Source: a virus
IMG/VR virus record: IMGVR_UViG_3300025093_000018
Span: 16,991-80,990 of that record
Length of the DNA: 64,000 nt
Direction: 5' to 3' (one strand)
Shown in pieces: positions 15,901 through 56,600 of the stretch. The translations under genes and the position numbers were made by a program. Positions within the stretch are counted from its first letter, which is position 1. Each line of letters opens with the position of its first letter. Under the pieces are notes generated by a model. It did no database searches, was not told where the DNA came from, and saw only the letters and a list, made by a program, of their open reading frames with translations.

Positions 15901-17664
15901 TTATCTCTTTATAGTAGCAATCTTATTTAAATCTAAAGAGCCTTGTTTTTTTAATGCTTTCTTATAAGTCTTTTCAGATTTCTTAGCCCTTTTTTCTTTA
16001 TCTTTCTGAGACTTTTTATAATCTTTGTCATTCTTTTTAGTAACCGAATTATCCTTTACTACAAAACCTTTTTGACCTTTTCTAAGTAAAACCCCACCAC
16101 CTTTGTGAGATTTACCACCGCAGTTATAGCTAGCTGTTTTACTATCTGCTTTTCTTTCAGCTTTTCTTTTAGCTTTATTTAAAACACGTAATTCTTTTTT
16201 ATATAGTTCCTCTAATGAACCATCTCCACCACCTTGTTTCTTTCTTTTATTCTTACGTTTTTTAGATTGTTTAGTAAGCCACTTACCATAAGTTTCACTT
16301 ACTACCCCATCGTAACCCTCAACTTTAGTAGTTAACTTACCACCTTTCTGTGATTTTTTAAGTAAAACCCCACCTCTTTTATGTTTTCTAGCAGGCGCTT
16401 GAGATCCAGTAGTTAATCTATAACCAAAGTTTAAATCTCTAATATTTGTCTGAGGTGTATAACCTTGCTGTTCAGCTTCTTTACTTCCGTAATATTGTTT
16501 TTCTTTAAACCCCGCTCTTCTTCTATAAGCATTTTTCCACTCTAGATTTTTATAAAAATTTTCTAAGTCTTCTGCTGGTATCATTCTTTGACCTGCTTGT
16601 TTGTGGTCTTCCGGATAAACAGCATTAGGGTCGATTGTTTGGTTTATATCCATAGTATTAGGATCTATGCCATATTTCTTCTGAACCCCTTGTCTAAATT
16701 TAATTATCTCTTGATTTCTTCTATTTCTTTCTGCCATTATAGCTGCATTAGCTTTGGCTTTACTATCTAATTGAGTAGGTCTGTTTGGATCATAGGCTGG
16801 CTGCCATTCGCTTAAACCTTGATATTGTTTAGGATCTACTTCACCTGGAGTTAAAACAGCTGTATTTGTTCTTTGTACACCGTTTACTGCCTTAGGTGTA
16901 ATCTGGTAAGTATTTACAGAGTCTACTTTATTACCGGTTTGGTATTTTAGTAATCTACCTCCATTTCTATAATTTGTCATATTATTTTCCTTAATTTTAA
17001 TTCCTTGTGCTTGAGCTATATTTTGTGGTGTGCCCCAAGTAGAGGCAAATGCTCTTGGGTTTTCTTTAACCTGTTGAACTATCTCTTTACTACTTAAACC
17101 ATCTGTACCATATTTCTTAGCGTACATTTTGGCCATATTATAGTTGGAAGCTTCCCAATGTTCTTTTCCTGTATCCTTACCTTGTCTTCTTTGGTATAGT
17201 TGACCATCCTCATATTTAAATCCAGGTGTAAACCCTCTAGCACTATCTGATTGTCTCTGTGCAGCTATAGCATCAGCTTTTCTTTTAGCAGCTAATTCAT
17301 CAGTAGCTTTTCTATCAAATATCCAGTCTGCCTTTGTAGCATCTGCATCATACGAGTATACTTCTCCCATATCTCTAGCTACATCTTGAAAGAATTGTTC
17401 TCCTCCTTCTCTTCCTGTAGACCCCGGTAAACTTTTATAGTAATCTACAATACCTTGTTGTTTTGTATTACCTCGGGATGCTGCTGCTACATAATTTGGG
17501 TCACTTATATACTTTTCATATCCAGATTTATCCCAAACTGCAGGTTTAACCACTTTATTTGGTTGTGCTTTATAATTTGGAGCAGAAGCAGCTCTAGTAG
17601 CTATAATATTATCTCCTTTAGCGGCTATTAATTTATTACCTCCTTGATATTTTAATATTCCCAT
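15901..17664 (-). CDS. Highly basic putative capsid-internal/cargo protein with KYQxG(G) repeats
   Basis: MGILKYQGG, LLKYQTG, KRGGVLLKKSQKGG, KGGGVLLRKGQKG; Lys-rich C-terminus. Confidence 0.45.
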   Translation of the reverse strand: MGILKYQGGNKLIAAKGDNIIATRAASAPNYKAQPNKVVKPAVWDKSGYEKYISDPNYVAAASRGNTKQQGIVDYYKSLPGSTGREGGEQFFQDVARDMGEVYSYDADATKADWIFDRKATDELAAKRKADAIAAQRQSDSARGFTPGFKYEDGQLYQRRQGKDTGKEHWEASNYNMAKMYAKKYGTDGLSSKEIVQQVKENPRAFASTWGTPQNIAQAQGIKIKENNMTNYRNGGRLLKYQTGNKVDSVNTYQITPKAVNGVQRTNTAVLTPGEVDPKQYQGLSEWQPAYDPNRPTQLDSKAKANAAIMAERNRRNQEIIKFRQGVQKKYGIDPNTMDINQTIDPNAVYPEDHKQAGQRMIPAEDLENFYKNLEWKNAYRRRAGFKEKQYYGSKEAEQQGYTPQTNIRDLNFGYRLTTGSQAPARKHKRGGVLLKKSQKGGKLTTKVEGYDGVVSETYGKWLTKQSKKRKNKRKKQGGGDGSLEELYKKELRVLNKAKRKAERKADSKTASYNCGGKSHKGGGVLLRKGQKGFVVKDNSVTKKNDKDYKKSQKDKEKRAKKSEKTYKKALKKQGSLDLNKIATIKR

Positions 17665-31978: not shown

Positions 31979-32049
31979 CACGACAGGAAGGATTCGAACC
32001 TTCATGATACGGTTTTGGAGACCGATCAGCACAACCTACGCTCTGAAGT
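31979..32049 (-). tRNA. tRNA-Trp(CCA), two acceptor-stem mismatches
   Basis: Anticodon loop CTCCAAA; T-arm GAAGG/CCTTC; acceptor ACTTCAG/CTGTCGT. Confidence 0.7.
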
Positions 32050-32262: not shown

Positions 32263-32343
32263 TAGCTTCGGTGGGATTCGAACCCACAAACCTCTTGCTT
32301 CTAAGGCAAGGTACTCTTCCATTCGTCTTTACGGCACGAAGCT
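32263..32343 (-). tRNA. tRNA-Leu(TAG), atypical
   Basis: Acceptor AGCTTCG/CGAAGCT; CTTGC-CTTAGAA-GCAAG; short variable loop and enlarged D region. Confidence 0.8.
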
Positions 32344-32591: not shown

Positions 32592-32599
32592 CAAATTTA
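32592..32599 (-). promoter_or_regulatory. Bacteroidota -7 promoter TAAATTTG (array 1)
   Basis: TAnnTTTG 4 nt before the leader ATG, implying a near-leaderless transcript. Confidence 0.7.
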
Positions 32600-32626: not shown

Positions 32627-33073
32627 TTAATCGTAAACTCGAACTTCTATAGTGTGATTTTTATAAAACTCGTTATTTACATAAGTTCCAGCAGAGTTAA
32701 CCATTTCATAATAAATAGTATTTACATCTTCCCAATACGCTAATACGTGACTATTACCATTTTGTGCTGTATTATTATGAAAAACTGCAGTTTTACCTTC
32801 TGTAAATACTCCAGCTAAGGTCATATAATAACCACCTGGGTACCCAGCATAACTCCAAACAGGTGTTCCTCCTAAAGTATTTTCTAATACAGTAGCATCA
32901 GGAGCACTAGTACCTGATTGTGTTAATGTTGCTGTATATACTCTATAGGGTCTTACAGTCTTATTGGCTAAAGCTATAAGTTCCTCTCTAAGTCTATTAA
33001 TATCTTTTACATCTTTACCAGTATGTTGTATATTGGCTTTGATAGAATCTGTAGTATCAGATACTTGTCCCAT
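32627..33073 (-). CDS. Virion-associated protein with VYTATLTQSGTSAP domain
   Basis: YRVYTATLTQSGTSAP..VLENTLG...IEVRVY module recalled from Bacteroidota phage fibre C-termini. Confidence 0.55.
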   Translation of the reverse strand: MGQVSDTTDSIKANIQHTGKDVKDINRLREELIALANKTVRPYRVYTATLTQSGTSAPDATVLENTLGGTPVWSYAGYPGGYYMTLAGVFTEGKTAVFHNNTAQNGNSHVLAYWEDVNTIYYEMVNSAGTYVNNEFYKNHTIEVRVYD

Positions 33074-33099
33074 AATTGATTATTTTTAATTAAATTTTA

Positions 33100-33534
33100 T
33101 TAACTCTTAACTGACCAATCAATTACCATTGCAGCGTCTAATGCGTTAGAAGCGTGAGCATTAAAGATCTTAATAGTAAGGGTATCATCTGTAGGCTCTA
33201 CTTTAGAGATTACAGGCATTCCAGCTCCTGTATAACTAGAGATTACAGCTGTAACAATTGAACCTGTAGTTAGTAAAGTATTAGAAATAGTTAATACAGT
33301 TGCTTCTGTAAGAGCAGCAGTTGATAACGCAGCAGTAGTAGATTTACCAACTGAGTTATTTAATGTAGGTGTTGCACCTGTTGTTGTGTTGTCTGAAGCT
33401 TCACCTGTTAAGTAGTTAGCTACATCAGTCATGAAGTTTCTAAGGGTCGTAGTAAAATCTTTTCTATCTGAATTGTATTGTAAGTCAGCTAAGATTCTAG
33501 TTTTAAGACCCGCGGATCCTGTAATAGTTGCCAT
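33100..33534 (-). CDS. Putative head decoration/fibre protein
   Basis: Ala/Thr-rich beta protein. Confidence 0.45.
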   Translation of the reverse strand: MATITGSAGLKTRILADLQYNSDRKDFTTTLRNFMTDVANYLTGEASDNTTTGATPTLNNSVGKSTTAALSTAALTEATVLTISNTLLTTGSIVTAVISSYTGAGMPVISKVEPTDDTLTIKIFNAHASNALDAAMVIDWSVKS

Positions 33535-33635
33535 AATTTTTTATTTAAAATATTAATTAATATTGTTTATACGACTAAAGAATACAAAAATTTATCGTAA
33601 ATACAAGGTTAATTACAAACTATTTAATTTAAGTA

Positions 33636-35900
33636 TTATTTATAAGGTAATAGATTACTCTTTTTTACTGAGTTTGTTTTAAATTCTGGTAATGTATAAG
33701 CATTTCCAGTCTTTAAATAATCTTGTAACTGGGTAAACTTCTCTTTAATCTTGGTATCTTTTAAATATACTTCTCTAGCTTTAGGCCAATATCTAGCCTT
33801 TTCAAACTCTTCTTCAGTTCCTTCAAACATTAATCCCCTGATCTGTCCATCTATCCAATTCTCTTTAAACTGCTCTTTACCATCTCCCTCTCCATAATCT
33901 TCCTTAGACATTTCCCAATCACGCTCAAAATCTCCTTTATGTTTTTCCAAGAAAGCATCCTCAAATTCTTTTCTATGTTTTTTGTACACTTTATCACTAG
34001 TCATACCATGCATCATATCTAACATGATAGACTGCTCGTTGTTAGTTTTAGGGTCATAGACTATACCATGAGTACCAGGTTTAGGGTGATCATATGAATA
34101 TCCACTATAATAAGTTACTTTTTCTCGTCCTTCTTTAGGACTGAAATACTCTATACTACCAACACCAGTCTTATCTCTTGTGAACTCTGGGTCAGATTTT
34201 ATAGTAACTTCACCCATGTTTTTAAATGCTGGATATTTATTATAGATGTTATCAAGCATTACCCCACCTTGTTGATACTTCAATAACACTCCTCCATTCC
34301 TTTTTGATTGTATTGATACAGCTCCAGATACTCCCACCAAAGGTGTTGTAGTGTAAACAGCATTTAAAAACTGTTTTAGGTCTTTTTTATCTAAATTCAC
34401 TACTAAATTAGTAATATCATTTGGTAAATCTCCTCCTATTCTACTGCTAGATTTTAATTGATCAATGGCTGCATCAGATATATCCCCACCACTCCATAAG
34501 CCCTTTTCTTTTAGATAGGATAGAGCTCTAACACCTCTAACTTGTTGTTCTGGTTTTTTATTTAAATATTCTATTGTACGAATAACTTGTGGATTATCAG
34601 ATTGTTGTCGTATAGTTTTAAAAGGTATCCCTTTCATACTATAGTCAATATTATACGTATTTGAGGCGTGTATAAATTCATGGTTAGCTATATTACTTAA
34701 CTCCTTATTATTAACGTTTTTATCTATACCTAACCAAACATGCGGGTTTTCATCTATAGTAGAAGAAAATCCTAACTGTCTAGTATCTACCCCGGTCATA
34801 TCTTTATACGTAACTTCAGTTTTATTTAACTTATGTAAAGCTATTGCTCTAGCTCTCTTAGCATCAGCCTTACTTTCTTTGGCTACAGACATTCTACGTT
34901 TTAACCATTCATCTGATTTTAACCAATTTTCTTGTTCTTTAAATGCTTTTTGTACTACCTCCAAATTCTTCTTACTTGGTATCACAGTAGGTGTGTTTAA
35001 TAAATCTTTCTTTTTATATAATTGCTTATTTATAATATGTTGTTGTTTATCTTTTGGAGACTTTTTAACTATTTCCCAAAACTCTCTATCTTTTGATGTT
35101 AATAATTTAATTTTATCATTTGATAATTTTAATATATCATCAACTGACTTAATATTATTAGTATTTGTATTTAAAGCGTCATATACATTTTTTACACTAC
35201 CATCCTGATTATAATGTATAGTTCTCTTTGTATCTATCTTTGCTTTACCTTCTGGGGATAAAAAAGAATTAAATATTTCCTCTTCTTTACTATAAATCGG
35301 TTTCTTTTTAGATAAATAAGGTTCTAATTTAGGGTCAAGAGTTGTTTTATTTAGTTTAGGATATATAACTGTTCCTTTATATACTTTAGGTGAAGGGGAT
35401 TTTCTTAGTAATCCTAAACCACTCTTACTTACAGGTTTAACATACTTACCAAGTTTAAGAGTATGCGCTGCTGCACCTATTTCTGGGGCTACAGCAATTA
35501 CATCTAAAGCTTGATCAACACCTTCCCAATAAGGGCTCTTAGTGATAGGATTTACATAAGACATTTGAGCGTACATAGCTGAACCTGGGTTTGCGTACAT
35601 AGTTAAATCTGCGGCAGTCTTCGCGGTACCTTTTGCTGTCCCTACAGGGTCATCTATAATTCTTGTCATAGAATTAAACGGTGTTATATCACCTAAAAAA
35701 TTCATAACACTATGACCTATTTGATCTAATTCTTCAGTTGTAGACTTAGATTTAACTGTAAATTCTGATAAATCAGGTGCCTGATAAACATCTGTTTTAG
35801 GGTTATACTTAGTTACGGTACCTTTTTTATAAGCTTTTTTATAATCAGAAGTTCCGTATTTAATCCCGCCACCTTTTTGGTATTTTAATAATATACCCAT
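33636..35900 (-). CDS. Multidomain protein with zincin HExxH motif and KYQxGG motifs (putative virion cargo)
   Basis: NHEFIHA...PEQQVR; MGILLKYQKGGG and GGVLLKYQQGG. Confidence 0.55.
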   Translation of the reverse strand: MGILLKYQKGGGIKYGTSDYKKAYKKGTVTKYNPKTDVYQAPDLSEFTVKSKSTTEELDQIGHSVMNFLGDITPFNSMTRIIDDPVGTAKGTAKTAADLTMYANPGSAMYAQMSYVNPITKSPYWEGVDQALDVIAVAPEIGAAAHTLKLGKYVKPVSKSGLGLLRKSPSPKVYKGTVIYPKLNKTTLDPKLEPYLSKKKPIYSKEEEIFNSFLSPEGKAKIDTKRTIHYNQDGSVKNVYDALNTNTNNIKSVDDILKLSNDKIKLLTSKDREFWEIVKKSPKDKQQHIINKQLYKKKDLLNTPTVIPSKKNLEVVQKAFKEQENWLKSDEWLKRRMSVAKESKADAKRARAIALHKLNKTEVTYKDMTGVDTRQLGFSSTIDENPHVWLGIDKNVNNKELSNIANHEFIHASNTYNIDYSMKGIPFKTIRQQSDNPQVIRTIEYLNKKPEQQVRGVRALSYLKEKGLWSGGDISDAAIDQLKSSSRIGGDLPNDITNLVVNLDKKDLKQFLNAVYTTTPLVGVSGAVSIQSKRNGGVLLKYQQGGVMLDNIYNKYPAFKNMGEVTIKSDPEFTRDKTGVGSIEYFSPKEGREKVTYYSGYSYDHPKPGTHGIVYDPKTNNEQSIMLDMMHGMTSDKVYKKHRKEFEDAFLEKHKGDFERDWEMSKEDYGEGDGKEQFKENWIDGQIRGLMFEGTEEEFEKARYWPKAREVYLKDTKIKEKFTQLQDYLKTGNAYTLPEFKTNSVKKSNLLPYK

Positions 35901-35938
35901 ATCTAGGTAATGTACAAAAAATTATTAAAAATATAAAG

Positions 35939-36012
35939 TACTCCCGGTAGGATTCGAACCTGGAACCGTCCCCTTAGAAGGGGGATGCTCTATCCAGTTG
36001 AGCTACGGGGCC
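35939..36012 (-). tRNA. tRNA-Arg(TCT), apparently chimeric 3' end
   Basis: Canonical D and anticodon arms (TCCCC-CTTCTAA-GGGGA); T-stem CCAGG/CCTAC and acceptor GGCCCCG/CGGGAGT each carry two mismatches. Confidence 0.7.
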
Positions 36013-36016
36013 AAAT

Positions 36017-36049
36017 AAAAAAGCCCCGGAACTTTGTAGTCCGAGGCTT
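36017..36049 (-). terminator. Attenuator terminator of tRNA locus 2
   Basis: AAGCCTCGGA-loop-TCCGGGGCTTTTTT just before tRNA-Arg. Confidence 0.85.
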
Positions 36050-36074
36050 CCTGTTATATATGAATTATTCTTAC

Positions 36075-36167
36075 TTACATATTTACAAATACAGATAGCC
36101 GCGGACTCCGTCTCGAATCGACAGTTCCGTTACTCTTAATGCCTGTATTTATAATTATTGCTTGCAT
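36075..36167 (-). CDS. Attenuator leader peptide 2, MQAIIINTGIKSNGTVDSRRSPRLSVFVNM
   Basis: Preceded by promoter-like TATATTG; contains AGTCCGCGGCT complementary (10/11) to terminator 5' arm AGCCTCGGACT. Confidence 0.75.
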   Translation of the reverse strand: MQAIIINTGIKSNGTVDSRRSPRLSVFVNM

Positions 36168-36199
36168 GTTGATTGCAATATAAATATTAAATTTTAAAC

Positions 36200-36799
36200 C
36201 TAAAAGGTCTTAGAATAATTTTTTAGCTTTTCTTTATCAGAACTTGAAAATTTAGATGAGTAGGTTAGGTTACCTTCTTCGCTCATTATATAATCCTCTG
36301 TACCACTATGGTATAAACCAAATAGATGTCCAAACTCATGTATAATAACCCTTGAACAATCCTTATTCGAATCCTGAAGACTGAGATCTACAAGGGCTAC
36401 AGCCTTTAAAGTACCTATACAGTTAGTATGAGCTGCTCCTATAACATCTTCGTCACTTCTACCTGTAATATACAAACTTATATCGGCCCAATTATTAGTT
36501 AACCTTTTAATAGAGGCTATTACAGAAAGATACGGGTTATAATCACTACCTCCATATGTAAAGGTAGAAATTTTAAAGTGGATGCCTACTTGAGCATATA
36601 CATTATTAACGTGGATCATAATCTCTTTAAGATCACTATAAGTTTTACTGGATGTGGTATCTACAAAGATATTTACGTTATAATGTTGGGTAGCTACTAA
36701 CTCCTGCGCATTAGATTTCAACACAGGATCAATTTTATATTGCCCTAGTAATGTAAAGCTGCAAACAAATAAGGCTAAAAATAATAAAAGTTTTTTCAT
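36200..36799 (-). CDS. Secreted metzincin (M12/reprolysin-like) zinc metalloprotease
   Basis: Signal peptide; HEFGHLFGLYH; Met-turn YIMS. Confidence 0.85.
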   Translation of the reverse strand: MKKLLLFLALFVCSFTLLGQYKIDPVLKSNAQELVATQHYNVNIFVDTTSSKTYSDLKEIMIHVNNVYAQVGIHFKISTFTYGGSDYNPYLSVIASIKRLTNNWADISLYITGRSDEDVIGAAHTNCIGTLKAVALVDLSLQDSNKDCSRVIIHEFGHLFGLYHSGTEDYIMSEEGNLTYSSKFSSSDKEKLKNYSKTF

Positions 36800-36869
36800 A
36801 ATTTAAATCATATTTACATTCTCATAGTACTAAGGTAACACTTTTTATTTGAATAAAAAAGTGTAATTG

Positions 36870-36940
36870 TTACCAGGAGAGGATTCGAACCTCTACCTTC
36901 TGGACCAAAACCAGACGTCCTGCCATTAGACCACCCGGCA
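36870..36940 (-). tRNA. tRNA-Gln(TTG)
   Basis: TCTGG-TTTTGGT-CCAGA; U1-A72 acceptor. Confidence 0.9.
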
Positions 36941-36946
36941 ATTTTG

Positions 36947-37019
36947 TGGACGAGGGCGGATTCGAACCACCGACGCTAGGCTCTTCAGGCCCACGCTCTA
37001 CCAACTGAGCTACTCGTCC
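36947..37019 (-). tRNA. tRNA-Phe(GAA)
   Basis: GGACGAG/CTCGTCC; anticodon loop CTGAAGA. Confidence 0.92.
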
Positions 37020-37025
37020 AGTTTA

Positions 37026-37114
37026 GGGTGTACGATGGGATTCGAACCCATGACGTGTCACTAACCGTACCGGGACCACAACCCAGCGCCTTCGACCGCT
37101 TGGCTACGCACACC
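37026..37114 (-). tRNA. tRNA-His(GTG) with unusually long variable region
   Basis: G-1/C73; CTGGG-TTGTGGT-CCCGG; about 18-nt variable region. Confidence 0.85.
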
Positions 37115-37120
37115 ATGTAG

Positions 37121-37202
37121 TGGGACCGGGAGGACTCGAACCTCCAAGCCGTTAGGACCCGGGTTACAACCGGGGACGCTACCAATTACGCTCTACGTTC
37201 CC
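37121..37202 (-). tRNA. tRNA-Tyr(GTA)
   Basis: CCCGG-TTGTAAC-CCGGG; long variable arm. Confidence 0.87.
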
Positions 37203-37318
37203 ATATTATATACGATCACATATAATCCCCGATATATCAGGTAATTTTATAATATTATACCCGCTATAGCATGGTTTTATATGTTTTACATATATTATAC
37301 CCTAATAGGTATAATTTG

Positions 37319-37392
37319 TGGAGCTACCGGGATTCGAACCCGGAACCTCTTCCGTGCAAAGGAAGCGCTCTTCCAGTTAGAGCTACAGCCCC
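37319..37392 (-). tRNA. tRNA-Ala(TGC)
   Basis: GGGGCTG/TAGCTCC with G3-U70; anticodon loop TTTGCAC. Confidence 0.93.
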
Positions 37393-37397
37393 ATATG

Positions 37398-37471
37398 TAG
37401 CGGGGGCGAGATTCGAACTCGCGTCCTTCGGGTTATGAGCCCGACGTCCTAGACCCCTAGACCACCCCGCT
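37398..37471 (-). tRNA. tRNA-Met(CAT), initiator-like anticodon stem
   Basis: TCGGG-CTCATAA-CCCGA with three G-C pairs. Confidence 0.88.
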
Positions 37472-37474
37472 AAG

Positions 37475-37547
37475 TCGAGTGAGCTGGATTCGAACCAGCG
37501 AATTCGTGCTCCCAAAGCACGCCCGTATAGCCTCTGCGTACCACTCG
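37475..37547 (-). tRNA. tRNA-Pro(TGG)
   Basis: CGAGTGG/TCACTCG; CGTGC-TTTGGGA-GCACG. Confidence 0.85.
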
Positions 37548-37556
37548 ATATAATAC

Positions 37557-37587
37557 AAAAAGCCCGAACTCTTTAAGAATCCGGGCT
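37557..37587 (-). terminator. Attenuator terminator of tRNA array 3
   Basis: AGCCCGGATTCT-TAA-AGAGTTCGGGCTTTTT ending about 10 nt before tRNA-Pro. Confidence 0.85.
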
Positions 37588-37614
37588 AATCAGCTTAGTA
37601 TATGTATGATCACA

Positions 37615-37692
37615 TTATAACACACTAATATCACCCAGAGAGCTAAAGGCCATCGGCTGAAAATAAAATGCGTTATGTTGTGTTTTTCTCAT
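37615..37692 (-). CDS. Attenuator leader peptide 3, MRKTQHNAFYFQPMAFSSLGDISVL
   Basis: Codons 5-16 are Q/H/A/F/Y/P/M in 11 of 12 positions, exactly the seven downstream tRNA specificities. Confidence 0.82.
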   Translation of the reverse strand: MRKTQHNAFYFQPMAFSSLGDISVL

Positions 37693-37725
37693 TGAAGTTA
37701 TTTCTTCGTTTTGTTTATCGTACTG

Positions 37726-37733
37726 CAAATATA
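37726..37733 (-). promoter_or_regulatory. Bacteroidota -7 promoter TATATTTG (array 3)
   Basis: Exact TAnnTTTG upstream of leader 3. Confidence 0.7.
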
Positions 37734-37772
37734 AATATATGTTTTTAATCTACAAGGTACTAAATAAAAATT

Positions 37773-38504
37773 TTAAATATCTGTTACATCAGGTAATGCT
37801 TTATATGTCTTCAATTCTTCTTCAGCCTTTAATCTAAGCTGTCTCTCCTTCAACCCCATAGATTTCCATTTGGCCTCACTTTGTACAGCTCTAGAGTACT
37901 CGTATTCGGCTTCATCTATTACTACAGCATAGATATTTATTGTGTCTTCATCAGATACATGGCCTAACGATTTAAGCTTTTTAGCTAAATCATTTAAAGC
38001 TTTATTTGTAAAACCACAGGGCTTGACTCTGTTACTTTTTGCATCATTAAATTCTATCTCCTTGCCTGTTTTTACCGTATAGATGTATAGTTGTCCTATC
38101 ATTAACTTCTCTTCCCAGGTAAGATTCTTTGAATTAAGAAAAGCACTGGGGATCTTCATCACATCTCTATAACTACTGCTTACTCTATACTTGCCATTAG
38201 ATATCTTCCCAAGGACACCGAGTTCTTCAAGATCTTTAAAAGCTCTTTTGATCGTACTAAGTGATGCTCCAGTAATTTCCGCTATCTCAGACCTATTAGG
38301 CAATGTTAAGGTATTTGATCTCGAATCATAAACACCTATTGTTTTAAGTATGGCTAGTACCATTAATTGTTTTGGATAATTAATAAAACCATCAGGTAAT
38401 GTTACATACCCTCCGGTTCTTAATGTGGCTTTCATACCACCAACCCCTTTAAAGGTTACAGGACTTCCGTCGTCCTTTAGTGCATTAAACTTCTTCATTT
38501 CCAT
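37773..38504 (-). CDS. Winged-HTH DNA-binding protein, RepL-like replication initiator candidate
   Basis: RSEIAEITGASLSTIKRAFKDLEELGVL..GKYRV wHTH plus a second HTH-like segment; TATATTTG immediately upstream; adjacent direct repeats. Confidence 0.6.
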   Translation of the reverse strand: MEMKKFNALKDDGSPVTFKGVGGMKATLRTGGYVTLPDGFINYPKQLMVLAILKTIGVYDSRSNTLTLPNRSEIAEITGASLSTIKRAFKDLEELGVLGKISNGKYRVSSSYRDVMKIPSAFLNSKNLTWEEKLMIGQLYIYTVKTGKEIEFNDAKSNRVKPCGFTNKALNDLAKKLKSLGHVSDEDTINIYAVVIDEAEYEYSRAVQSEAKWKSMGLKERQLRLKAEEELKTYKALPDVTDI

Positions 38505-38550
38505 AATGCAAATATAAGGAAAATTAATGAATTAAAAAAGGTTCATTTTA

Positions 38551-38775
38551 AAAAGGGTCAGATTTCCTCACCCGTCTTTAAAGGGCTAGAGAGCTTTTAG
38601 TAGTTTTAGTATGGTTCATTTAGGTGTTTTTCGGTAGTTTTTCGGTAAAATTTCGGAAAAAGGGTCAGATTTCCCCCAAAAAGGGTCAGATTTCCTCAAT
38701 GATTTTTGGTAAAATTTTTGGGGTTAAATAGTTGAAAATAAAAACGTTAAAAAGAAAAAGGGTCAGATTTCCTCA
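38551..38775. repeat. Four direct repeats AAAAGGGTCAGATTTCC(TCA), iteron-like
   Basis: Copies at 38551, 38658, 38679 and 38756, plus TTTCGG and GGTTCATTT sub-repeats. Confidence 0.85.
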
Positions 38776-38808
38776 TCTTTTTAACGCTATTATATATTAA
38801 GGATTATT

Positions 38809-39132
38809 TTATTTTGAAGTACTACAAGTAACCCAAAACGGTTGATCAAGTGGTCTATATGTCCAATCAGGTCTACTTAGAATAGGGCCATGGATTGGGC
38901 ACCAGGTTGAGTTCCACCAACCGCATGTACATGTTTGGGAAATATATGGTACTGGAGATGTTACCGGAGGTACGTAAACTTCCTCCTCTACCTCCTCATG
39001 TTTGTCCGTAGATTTGTCGGAAAACTTTGCTAATTTATCTTTAATCTTTTGTACTTGTTCTTCATTTAAGGTCTTAGCTCCTGATATATCAAAGAAACCA
39101 TTTAACCAGATTATAAATTCTTCGTGTGTCAT
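38809..39132 (-). CDS. Hypothetical protein
   Basis: MT.EEFIIWLNGFFDIS...L.EEQV.KIKD.L, a common small phage protein pattern. Confidence 0.6.
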   Translation of the reverse strand: MTHEEFIIWLNGFFDISGAKTLNEEQVQKIKDKLAKFSDKSTDKHEEVEEEVYVPPVTSPVPYISQTCTCGWWNSTWCPIHGPILSRPDWTYRPLDQPFWVTCSTSK

Positions 39133-52861: not shown

Positions 52862-52976
52862 ATGCCTATTAGCTCAAATGGTAGAGTATTATTATATTTC
52901 ACGGGGGATGCTCGTGTTTTAAAGAGCTTGCTCGAATATAATAAAGGTTATAGGTTCGAACCCTATATAGGCATCA
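52862..52976 (+). ncRNA. tRNA-like RNA with expanded, branched anticodon domain
   Basis: Acceptor TGCCTAT/ATAGGCA; D-arm GCTC-AAATGGTA-GAGT; T-arm ATAGG-TTCGAAC-CCTAT; 11-bp stem enclosing two hairpins in place of the anticodon loop. Confidence 0.7.
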
Positions 52977-56283: not shown

Positions 56284-56600
56284 TAATTACTGTTAGGCTT
56301 TTATACTTAACTGTTTGGACGAGGGTTCGAATCCCTCCGACTCCACAACGCATCAGTTAGCGAAGGTAGAAAACGCTTGCGTAAACCTACCTAAAAAATT
56401 GGCAGAGTACCCGGAGATACTTGTACACTAAATGGTTGAAATAACCACTGCCAACAATATGGGGTCGTTTTTGGTTTTGACAGCAGAAGACGAGGTATTA
56501 GATAGGTAATTATAATCTCTTAAACGGAGAATTTGATATGGAGCACAATCCATTTATTGTGCAAGAAGAAGCAGTTGCTGAGAAATTGGCAGCCTAATCT
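56284..56600 (+). ncRNA. ssrA: Circularly permuted (two-piece) tmRNA
   Basis: 3' piece first (GAC-GAGGG-TTCGAAT-CCCTC-CGACTCC-A, ending 56345). 5' piece GGGGTCG...TTTTGAC starts at 56461. Acceptor stem has G3-U70. Tag frame 56526-56597 reads GEFDMEHNPFIVQEEAVAEKLAA*. Confidence 0.85.

Follow-up and report, generated by a model that had tools for sequence, protein, structure and literature searches.

A probable remnant of a leader-peptide attenuator of tRNA genes, followed by a single presumed hybrid tRNA-Arg(UCU) gene, in a metagenomic phage record

In the virus record IMGVR_UViG_3300025093_000018, a short leader-like open reading frame (ORF) whose codons call for nine kinds of tRNA is followed by one tRNA gene only, an Arg(UCU) gene whose 3' end does not pair with its own 5' strands. 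The reading that we favour, with a probability of roughly 0.65, is that we see here what remains of a leader-peptide attenuator by which a tRNA operon was formerly controlled, and that the array of this operon was lost via recombination in the T loop, leaving a hybrid gene. In the ancestral layout, which a relative (locus L019) would have kept, a promoter would drive an ORF of about 30 codons, the middle of which is written in codons of the downstream tRNAs and part of which is able to pair with the 5' arm of an intrinsic terminator just ahead of the first tRNA. When a listed tRNA is scarce, the ribosome would stall in the run, the antiterminator would form and transcription would enter the array; when the ribosome reads through, the terminator would form instead. 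In the phage studied here the array would have been cut to one gene by recombination in the near-universal T-loop sequence AGGTTCGAATCCT, by which the first 63 bases of Arg(UCU) were joined to the last 11 of another tRNA. That stalling alters read-through is inferred, without RNA or reporter data.

The window, i.e. the whole stretch of DNA that was analysed, comprises 64,000 nt (positions 16,991 to 80,990) of a record of 80,990 bases with 33.5% G+C. This record is incomplete (CheckV 42%, terminal repeat absent), and at its left end (C1, positions 1-2007, left of the window) a minus-strand frame stays open for 669 codons and runs off. In the record ARAGORN calls tRNA genes on the minus strand only, and they form three clusters:

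37547 to 36869, minus strand: cluster A, with Pro, Met, Ala, Tyr, His, Phe and Gln
36012 to 35939, minus strand: cluster B, a lone Arg(TCT)
32424 to 31824, minus strand: cluster C, with Glu, two weak tRNA-like genes, Leu(TAA), Cys and Arg(ACG)

The same three features stand ahead of every cluster: a promoter-like element, then a short ORF, then a hairpin plus U-run whose end lies no more than a few bases from the first tRNA. In clusters A and C the amino acids of the leader are those of the tRNAs behind it, and the same holds for both arrays of L019. The Glu gene of cluster C rests on an Rfam match only, without an ARAGORN call. The two weak genes of this cluster (32271-32328 and 31979-32049, minus strand; 27 and 25 bits, threshold 29) were interpreted from their loops as Leu(TAG) and Trp(CCA), and L019 and a second relative, L022, have counterparts of them in matching places. 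Neither ARAGORN nor the Rfam tRNA model found a tRNA for Ile, Asn, Thr, Gly, Lys, Ser, Val or Asp in the record. Since the record is a fragment, the statement that the phage is without these eight kinds is valid only for the 81 kb in hand, and the missing tRNAs could sit in unsequenced DNA of the same phage.

Some further RNA features were seen in the window. All 11 ARAGORN tRNAs, the hybrid gene included, have a C after the discriminator and none encodes a full CCA. A tRNA-like gene at 52863-52974 (plus strand; Rfam 46.3 bits, 37% G+C), missed by ARAGORN and by the whole-window Rfam scan, has 46 bases in the place of the 7-base anticodon loop, and its anticodon is unreadable. A permuted tmRNA is found at 56286-56597 (plus strand; Rfam RF04321, 51.1 bits against 47; ARAGORN tag GEFDMEHNPFIVQEEAVAEKLAA).

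The locus around cluster B is built up as follows:

36175-36182, minus strand: promoter-like -7 element TATATTGC, 7 bases upstream of the leader ATG and 1 base short of TAnnTTTG
36075-36167, minus strand: leader ORF 2, 30 codons, with the regulatory run in codons 4-19 (36111-36158), followed by codon 20, CGG
36091-36107, minus strand: antiterminator strand, within codons 21-26 of the leader ORF, with the 5' arm of the terminator as partner
36013-36052, minus strand: terminator-like hairpin with U-run, ending at the first base of the tRNA
35950-36012, minus strand: tRNA positions 1-63, an Arg(UCU)-type 5' part with D and anticodon arms intact
35950-35962, minus strand: presumed shared stretch AGGTTCGAATCCT at the end of positions 1-63, 13 bases common to both presumed parents
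35939-35949, minus strand: tRNA positions 64-74, the foreign 3' end ACCGGGAGTA with the discriminator, unpaired with its own 5' strands
33636-35900, minus strand: gene for a protein of 754 aa, starting 38 bases after the hybrid tRNA

Leader ORF 2 encodes the peptide MQAIIINTGIKSNGTVDSRRSPRLSVFVNM. Its codons 4-19 (ATA ATT ATA AAT ACA GGC ATT AAG AGT AAC GGA ACT GTC GAT TCG AGA) stand solely for Ile, Asn, Thr, Gly, Lys, Ser, Val, Asp and Arg(AGA), which is the set of the eight amino acids that clusters A and C leave without service, plus Arg. In a six-frame search of the 80,990-base record, runs of 16 residues restricted to these nine amino acids with all nine present occurred at 2 loci (5 of 59,920 windows), and the equivalent runs of the two other leaders of the window, with every member of the set required, are each unique in the record. 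Reading of the ORF together with ARAGORN and Rfam bears out the observation from which the sequence-only reading started, that this run calls nine kinds of tRNA and that a single tRNA follows, i.e. the tRNA-Arg(TCT) gene of 74 bases (35938/35939-36012, minus strand), on which both programs agree.

Two other cluster leaders are preceded by an exact TAnnTTTG (32592-32599 and 37726-37733), a consensus which we take to be that of a -7 promoter element. As promoter evidence the motif was dropped, as it is not enriched in the window (80 observed against 89 expected), and it was used for position only; that the -7 element of leader 2 is a promoter is therefore a positional inference and no more. The element TATATTGC has one T fewer than the TAnnTTTGCA of five other leaders (two in the window, two in L019, one in L022), a shortening that may be decay following the loss of the cargo.

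Syntenic DNA of relatives was fetched by the large terminase (TerL), 1-7 kb downstream of the clusters, which yielded 3 IMG/VR loci and 16 JGI metagenome loci; a p72-p200-TerL block is common to the loci of all terminase relatives. The sole relative to reach the leader-2 region is L019 (10,525 bases, TerL 66% identical). Ahead of its p72 lie, in this order, a promoter-like element and the ORF MKNISINTGINKTDKVDSRLGSSCVDMIM, next a T-run hairpin, an Arg(TCT) gene in intact form, a 46-codon ORF and then an array of Lys(TTT), Met(CAT) (also given as Met/Ile(CAT)), Gly(TCC), Asp(GTC), Asn(GTT), Ser(TGA), Ser(GCT), Thr(TGT), Ile(GAT) and Val(TAC), so that its first array counts 11 genes in about 1.2 kb. 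A second array follows the same plan, with a promoter, the leader MKNLVTLLECRLWLEESSGGSSNAKTFL and a hairpin before Glu, Leu, Leu, Trp, Cys and Arg(ACG). The 46-codon ORF (655-795 of L019), between the Arg(TCT) and Lys genes, has a lipoprotein-like start (MKKLILVSALLFMISC...).

The leader-2 regions of the window and L019 can be aligned without interruption between the start codon and the Arg gene, hairpin included, and on into that gene; within the ORF there is one gap, which is 3 bases long and preserves the frame. Judged by this alignment, the two leaders are homologous. Downstream of the hybrid gene nothing aligns to L019. The inference that an array had been lost, drawn earlier from the leader alone, is hereby supported: in L019 the homologous leader precedes Arg(TCT) and ten tRNAs of the kinds listed by the leader, on the evidence of one relative and an incomplete record. 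Relatives with the same lone mismatched tRNA and no further array would have refuted that inference, and this outcome is absent, as the syntenic locus of L019 carries the full array.

A scan of 20 loci of relatives gave leader-like ORFs in two, L019 and L022, where they stand before all three arrays for which upstream DNA is available. The other leader-like matches, obtained with a less strict threshold, are chance occurrences, 13 of which fall within the C-terminal part of p200. In L022 the leader MKTLHTLLERLLWLERFSGGSNCAYM (488-568) stands before Glu, Leu, Leu, a weak Trp-like gene and Arg(GCG) (636-1044); L022 is without tRNA-Cys and its run LLERLLWLER is without Cys, and the window and L019 have both. 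The tRNA arrays are variable among the relatives: of seven with at least 1 kb upstream of p72, two (L019, L022) have an array beside p72 and five do not. Among the relatives ARAGORN found tRNAs only in L019 and L022; Rfam added one in L030, which has Trp and Cys genes 3.8 kb further up. No terminase relative was found among the GTDB genomes, no close relative among the named phages of INPHARED by megablast of 33000-39000 or tblastn of the 754-aa protein, and two leader-derived patterns matched the L019 contig only.

As criteria for a leader-peptide attenuator we used regulatory codons clustered in a short ORF, an intrinsic terminator between this ORF and the tRNA, a mutually exclusive antiterminator that takes the 5' arm of the terminator, and regulated genes that serve the amino acids of the leader. 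Leader ORF 2 meets the first by its codon run. The second is met by the hairpin with its U-run, since the region 36013-36175 folds at -44.7 kcal/mol (RNAfold; z -5.03, none of 200 shuffles equally stable); the leader region of L019 folds with a z of -4.20. A simple terminator consensus scan picked up the hairpins of clusters A and C and missed that of cluster B.

For the third criterion the ribosome was modelled by masking the RNA up to 12 bases beyond a chosen codon, after which the minimum-energy fold was computed. In L019 these constrained folds give the antiterminator for each position up to and including codon 16 and the terminator from codon 17 on, which in the model is the logic of classical attenuation. 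In the window a ribosome at codon 5, 14 or 16 is predicted to leave the antiterminator as best fold, and one at codons 8-12, or at codon 18 and beyond, the terminator, a modelled switch that is less clean than that of L019. Nine of the 13 antiterminator pairs of the window are kept in L019 at aligned columns, three columns falling in the gap, and four of these nine show double compensatory changes between window and L019. With two sequences compared this covariation is modest, but of the kind to be expected if an alternative helix is conserved; together with the constrained folds it meets the criterion. The fourth criterion is met in L019, where 9 of 9 leader amino acids are served, and failed in the window, where the hybrid Arg gene alone serves 1 of 9.

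This Arg gene meets the score criterion of the tRNA family (Rfam RF00005, 41.1 bits against a gathering threshold of 29), ranking 10th of the 12 tRNA matches of the window, and fails the criterion of a seven-pair acceptor and a five-pair T stem. In the structure given by ARAGORN the D and anticodon arms are perfect, the acceptor stem has the non-pairs G2.G71 and C3.A70 beside a G1.U72 wobble, and the T stem has the non-pairs C49.C65 and C50.A64. All four non-pairs trace to the last 11 bases, where they lie within one 8-base span on one strand, and none is left if the complement of the 5' strands is substituted for the 3' strand CCTAC-CGGGAGT, which upholds the earlier claim that a mismatched 3' strand follows a good Arg(UCU) 5' part. 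In a survey of the 255 ARAGORN tRNAs of all DNA analysed, both stems could be parsed in 233; of these, 195 have no non-pair and the hybrid gene alone has at least two in both stems. The other gene with four non-pairs, Leu(TAG) of L019, apparently has a mis-set start. The minimum-energy fold of the hybrid gene (RNAfold) lacks both the acceptor helix and the T hairpin, helices that are both seen in 9 of the 11 other window tRNAs folded and in Arg(TCT) of L019. With two acceptor non-pairs and a T stem of three pairs the product is probably a poor or dead tRNA; this loss of function is inferred, in the absence of RNA or charging data, and it cannot be taken as shown because the Rfam score lies above the threshold and is higher than those of two other tRNAs of the same phage (Pro 39.9, Tyr 30.6 bits).

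The 3' end itself is a natural one. The 22 bases that run from the T loop to the discriminator are found, letter for letter, in 15 other IMG/VR contigs and in 3 of the GTDB species genomes scanned, in tRNAs that ARAGORN reads as 7 CAT, 5 long Ile(TAT), 5 Arg (2 TCT, in L003 and L038; 3 TCG, in L008, L037 and L039) and 1 Leu(TAG). Each of the 15 IMG/VR carriers has 5' strands complementary to this end, and the window gene is the exception; the T stems of the carriers read GTAGG (11), GTGGG (2) or GCAGG (2) and their acceptors GCTCCCG, GCTCCTG, GCTTCCG or ACTCTTG. The GTDB carriers are two Patescibacteria and a Planctomycetaceae-labelled contig resembling a tRNA array, none being Bacteroidota by title.

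Could the mismatches have arisen without recombination, Arg(UCU) decaying by point mutation once it was dispensable, or tolerating them and remaining functional? Four substitutions would be enough if G1.U72 is ancestral, as it is in L019, other tRNAs of this phage are odd too (the low-scoring Tyr and Pro genes, the two tRNA-like genes below threshold) and the gene still scores 41.1 bits. We consider this quite unlikely, as the four changes would have to fall in one short span of one strand with the D and anticodon arms left perfect, as the altered strand equals an exact natural tRNA end of 18 other records, which is not expected from random decay, and as the minimum-energy fold has lost the two helices that most other tRNAs of the window retain.

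Comparison with individual genes gives a mosaic pattern. Over positions 1-53 and 64-74 of the window gene, respectively, 46 of 53 and 5 of 11 bases are shared with a gene of Pseudomonas phage PPpW-3 (which has the GGCCCCG acceptor strand in common), 38 of 53 and 11 of 11 with Arg(TCG) of L037 (whole D arm identical), and 41 of 53 and 10 of 11 with Arg(TCT) of Aeromonas phage MQM1. L003 and L038 match positions 64-74 in 11 of 11, and Arg(TCT) of L019 agrees in 28 of the first 53. On these comparisons a single crossover within AGGTTCGAATCCT would explain everything in the pattern, and a recombinant gene is the best reading of the putative hybrid. The donor of the 3' end is absent among the tRNAs of the record and of L019; none of the carriers of the 22-mer has a homologue of the 754-aa protein or of the 144- and 148-aa proteins encoded near it, or a similar flank. 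A 41-base stretch of the hybrid tRNA has no exact match in IMG/VR, and the 318 records that distant blastn returned from INPHARED matched by tRNA-Arg genes of unrelated phages alone, each over less than 80% of the query.

As Arg tRNAs commonly have this 3' end, another Arg isoacceptor may have served as the partner, and the hybrid could then stem from exchange or gene conversion between Arg(UCU) and another Arg gene, be it an isoacceptor of the array or the allele of a co-infecting phage, separately from the loss of the array. Besides the 5 Arg tRNAs among the 18 carriers and the resemblances to L037 and MQM1, codon 20 of the leader, CGG, points in this direction, as it has no standard decoder among the tRNAs of the record; we regard it as a lead, not a result. 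We hold such an exchange to be unlikely: it needs two events where one deletion suffices, the carriers include 7 CAT, 5 TAT and 1 Leu(TAG), so that the end is not specific for Arg, and the record has no second Arg gene of such a type. A different thought is that integration left behind, or makes use of, an attachment site here, the 3' end being copied from that of a host tRNA, as phages commonly integrate into the 3' ends of tRNA genes. This has next to nothing to support it, because the record (a fragment) holds no tyrosine or serine recombinase (PF00589, PF00239), the 22-mer occurs in 3 species genomes only with no matching host tRNA, and the gene occupies the position of the first array gene of L019; judged by the presence of a recombinase and identity to a host tRNA end, the attachment site was rejected.

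A metagenomic record and a repeat-rich tRNA array also raise the question whether the assembly collapsed an array, as the sequence-only reading had allowed, or joined two strains at the T-loop repeat. The stretch is present in one public run, X1, a marine metagenome; no RNA run is listed. The Logan contig of X1 (61,888 bases) covers 34500-37800 without a single difference or indel and shows no alternative joint within the phage, and the remaining pieces of X1 are short tRNA matches from other organisms. The parent-specific bases that flank the junction are 23 bases apart, inside one 31-base word, and the usual words of assemblers are longer than the 13 bases that the presumed parents share. 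X1 is probably the source of the assembly, for which reason the Logan contig is to be seen as a re-assembly and not as independent data. The sequencing data thus show the junction to be genuine, and we do not find it credible that an assembly collapsed over a repeat of only 13 bases; that part of the earlier proposal is not supported, and we give practically no weight to an artefact of assembly in either form.

We return to the remnant of an attenuator as the preferred reading, and here the history of the locus is less certain than its anatomy. As a single relative covers the leader-2 region, with Arg genes that agree in 28 of 53 positions, the ancestral state rests on one comparison, and the direction, loss here versus gain in L019, is inferred. 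Recombination at the T arm, put forward by the sequence-only reading, stands as the most economical account; that it was a single deletion is not proven, with the donor unidentified. Because nothing downstream aligns, a replacement that brought in the block of the 754-aa gene is as possible as a simple internal deletion.

The genes for the 754-, 144- and 148-aa proteins take the place of the next tRNA array of L019 and are not found at this place in L019. The 754-aa protein has 2 relatives among 5.8 billion proteins, one locus in IMG/VR, which is without tRNAs, and no Pfam or PHROG match. Between clusters A and B a secreted-looking zinc metalloprotease is encoded (36200-36799, minus strand; Reprolysin_3 / M10 motif HEFGHLFGLYH). 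A homologue with 31% identity lies directly upstream of p72, with no array between, in L020 (2476-2817) and L030 (3323-3841), and the M12-like protease as IMG/VR query gave no locus.

That leader, antiterminator and terminator are intact suggests either a recent loss or continued use of the switch, be it as terminator of the upstream protease gene or as gate for the downstream 754-aa gene. As there is no exact TAnnTTTG between the hybrid gene and the start of the 754-aa gene, the latter may be read from the leader-2 promoter via the switch, which is an inference. A more far-reaching proposal joins three elements: the leaders as a manifest of tRNA cargo that predicts lost genes, the orphan switch as gate of the 754-, 144- and 148-aa genes, and the hybrid tRNA as a processing signal for RNase P/Z instead of a decoder. 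Taken together we find it doubtful; if true, the expression of these late genes would respond when nine host tRNAs run short.

Amino-acid and synthetase genes are known to be controlled by leader-peptide attenuation, and multivalent examples exist in ilvGMEDA (Ile/Val/Leu) and thr (Thr/Ile), next to trpL and hisL. The window and L019 share with these amino-acid operons a run of regulatory codons in a short ORF, a terminator before the regulated genes and, as predicted, an alternative pairing that takes the 5' arm of the terminator when the ribosome stalls. Unlike in amino-acid operons, the regulated genes in L019 are tRNA genes rather than biosynthetic enzymes, the leader covers nine amino acids, the host of the system is a phage with Bacteroidota-style promoters and, in the window, the cargo is gone. 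For the hybrid gene, the duplicated tyrT genes of E. coli offer a parallel, in which unequal recombination between tandem tRNA genes yields a deletion and one hybrid gene. In both cases a short tRNA sequence shared by tandem genes would have recombined and left a hybrid; the tyrT parents are near-identical, so that their product works, whereas the presumed parents in the window differ, so that both stems are mismatched.

Other tRNA sets have been linked to stress and defence. The trn tRNA operon of Anabaena PCC 7120 is described, in the accessible portions of the reports, as silent and induced by translational stress (PMC8421152, PMC10272220), and it resembles the phage arrays in that accessory tRNAs would be kept off and switched on when elongation is impaired. 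Unlike what we propose for the phage arrays, control is there exerted by a repressor, TrcR, at the promoter (PMC10272220), and the portion of that article at hand contains no mention of a leader peptide, attenuation or a terminator. Phage tRNAs have also been presented as counter-defence against tRNA-cleaving immunity (PMC11464382, PMC11555353, likewise in the accessible parts), which gives a reason for phage tRNA sets covering many amino acids and under which expression on demand could pay; in those parts no regulation by leader translation is apparent. Among the literature matches listed, supplements excluded, there was no leader-peptide control of tRNA genes, which does not prove its absence.

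What is new here is an attenuator that appears orphaned, a hybrid tRNA, and a leader whose content predicts the cargo that was lost. From the leader alone nine specificities had been predicted, with Arg in first place at the junction, and the array found afterwards in L019 agrees with this; without a functional tie between leader and cargo such agreement would be difficult to explain. In addition, the locus illustrates a route by which tRNA arrays may be lost, through recombination across the conserved T loop, a mechanism that we infer, and the orphan switch offers a chance to ask what an attenuator does without its cargo.
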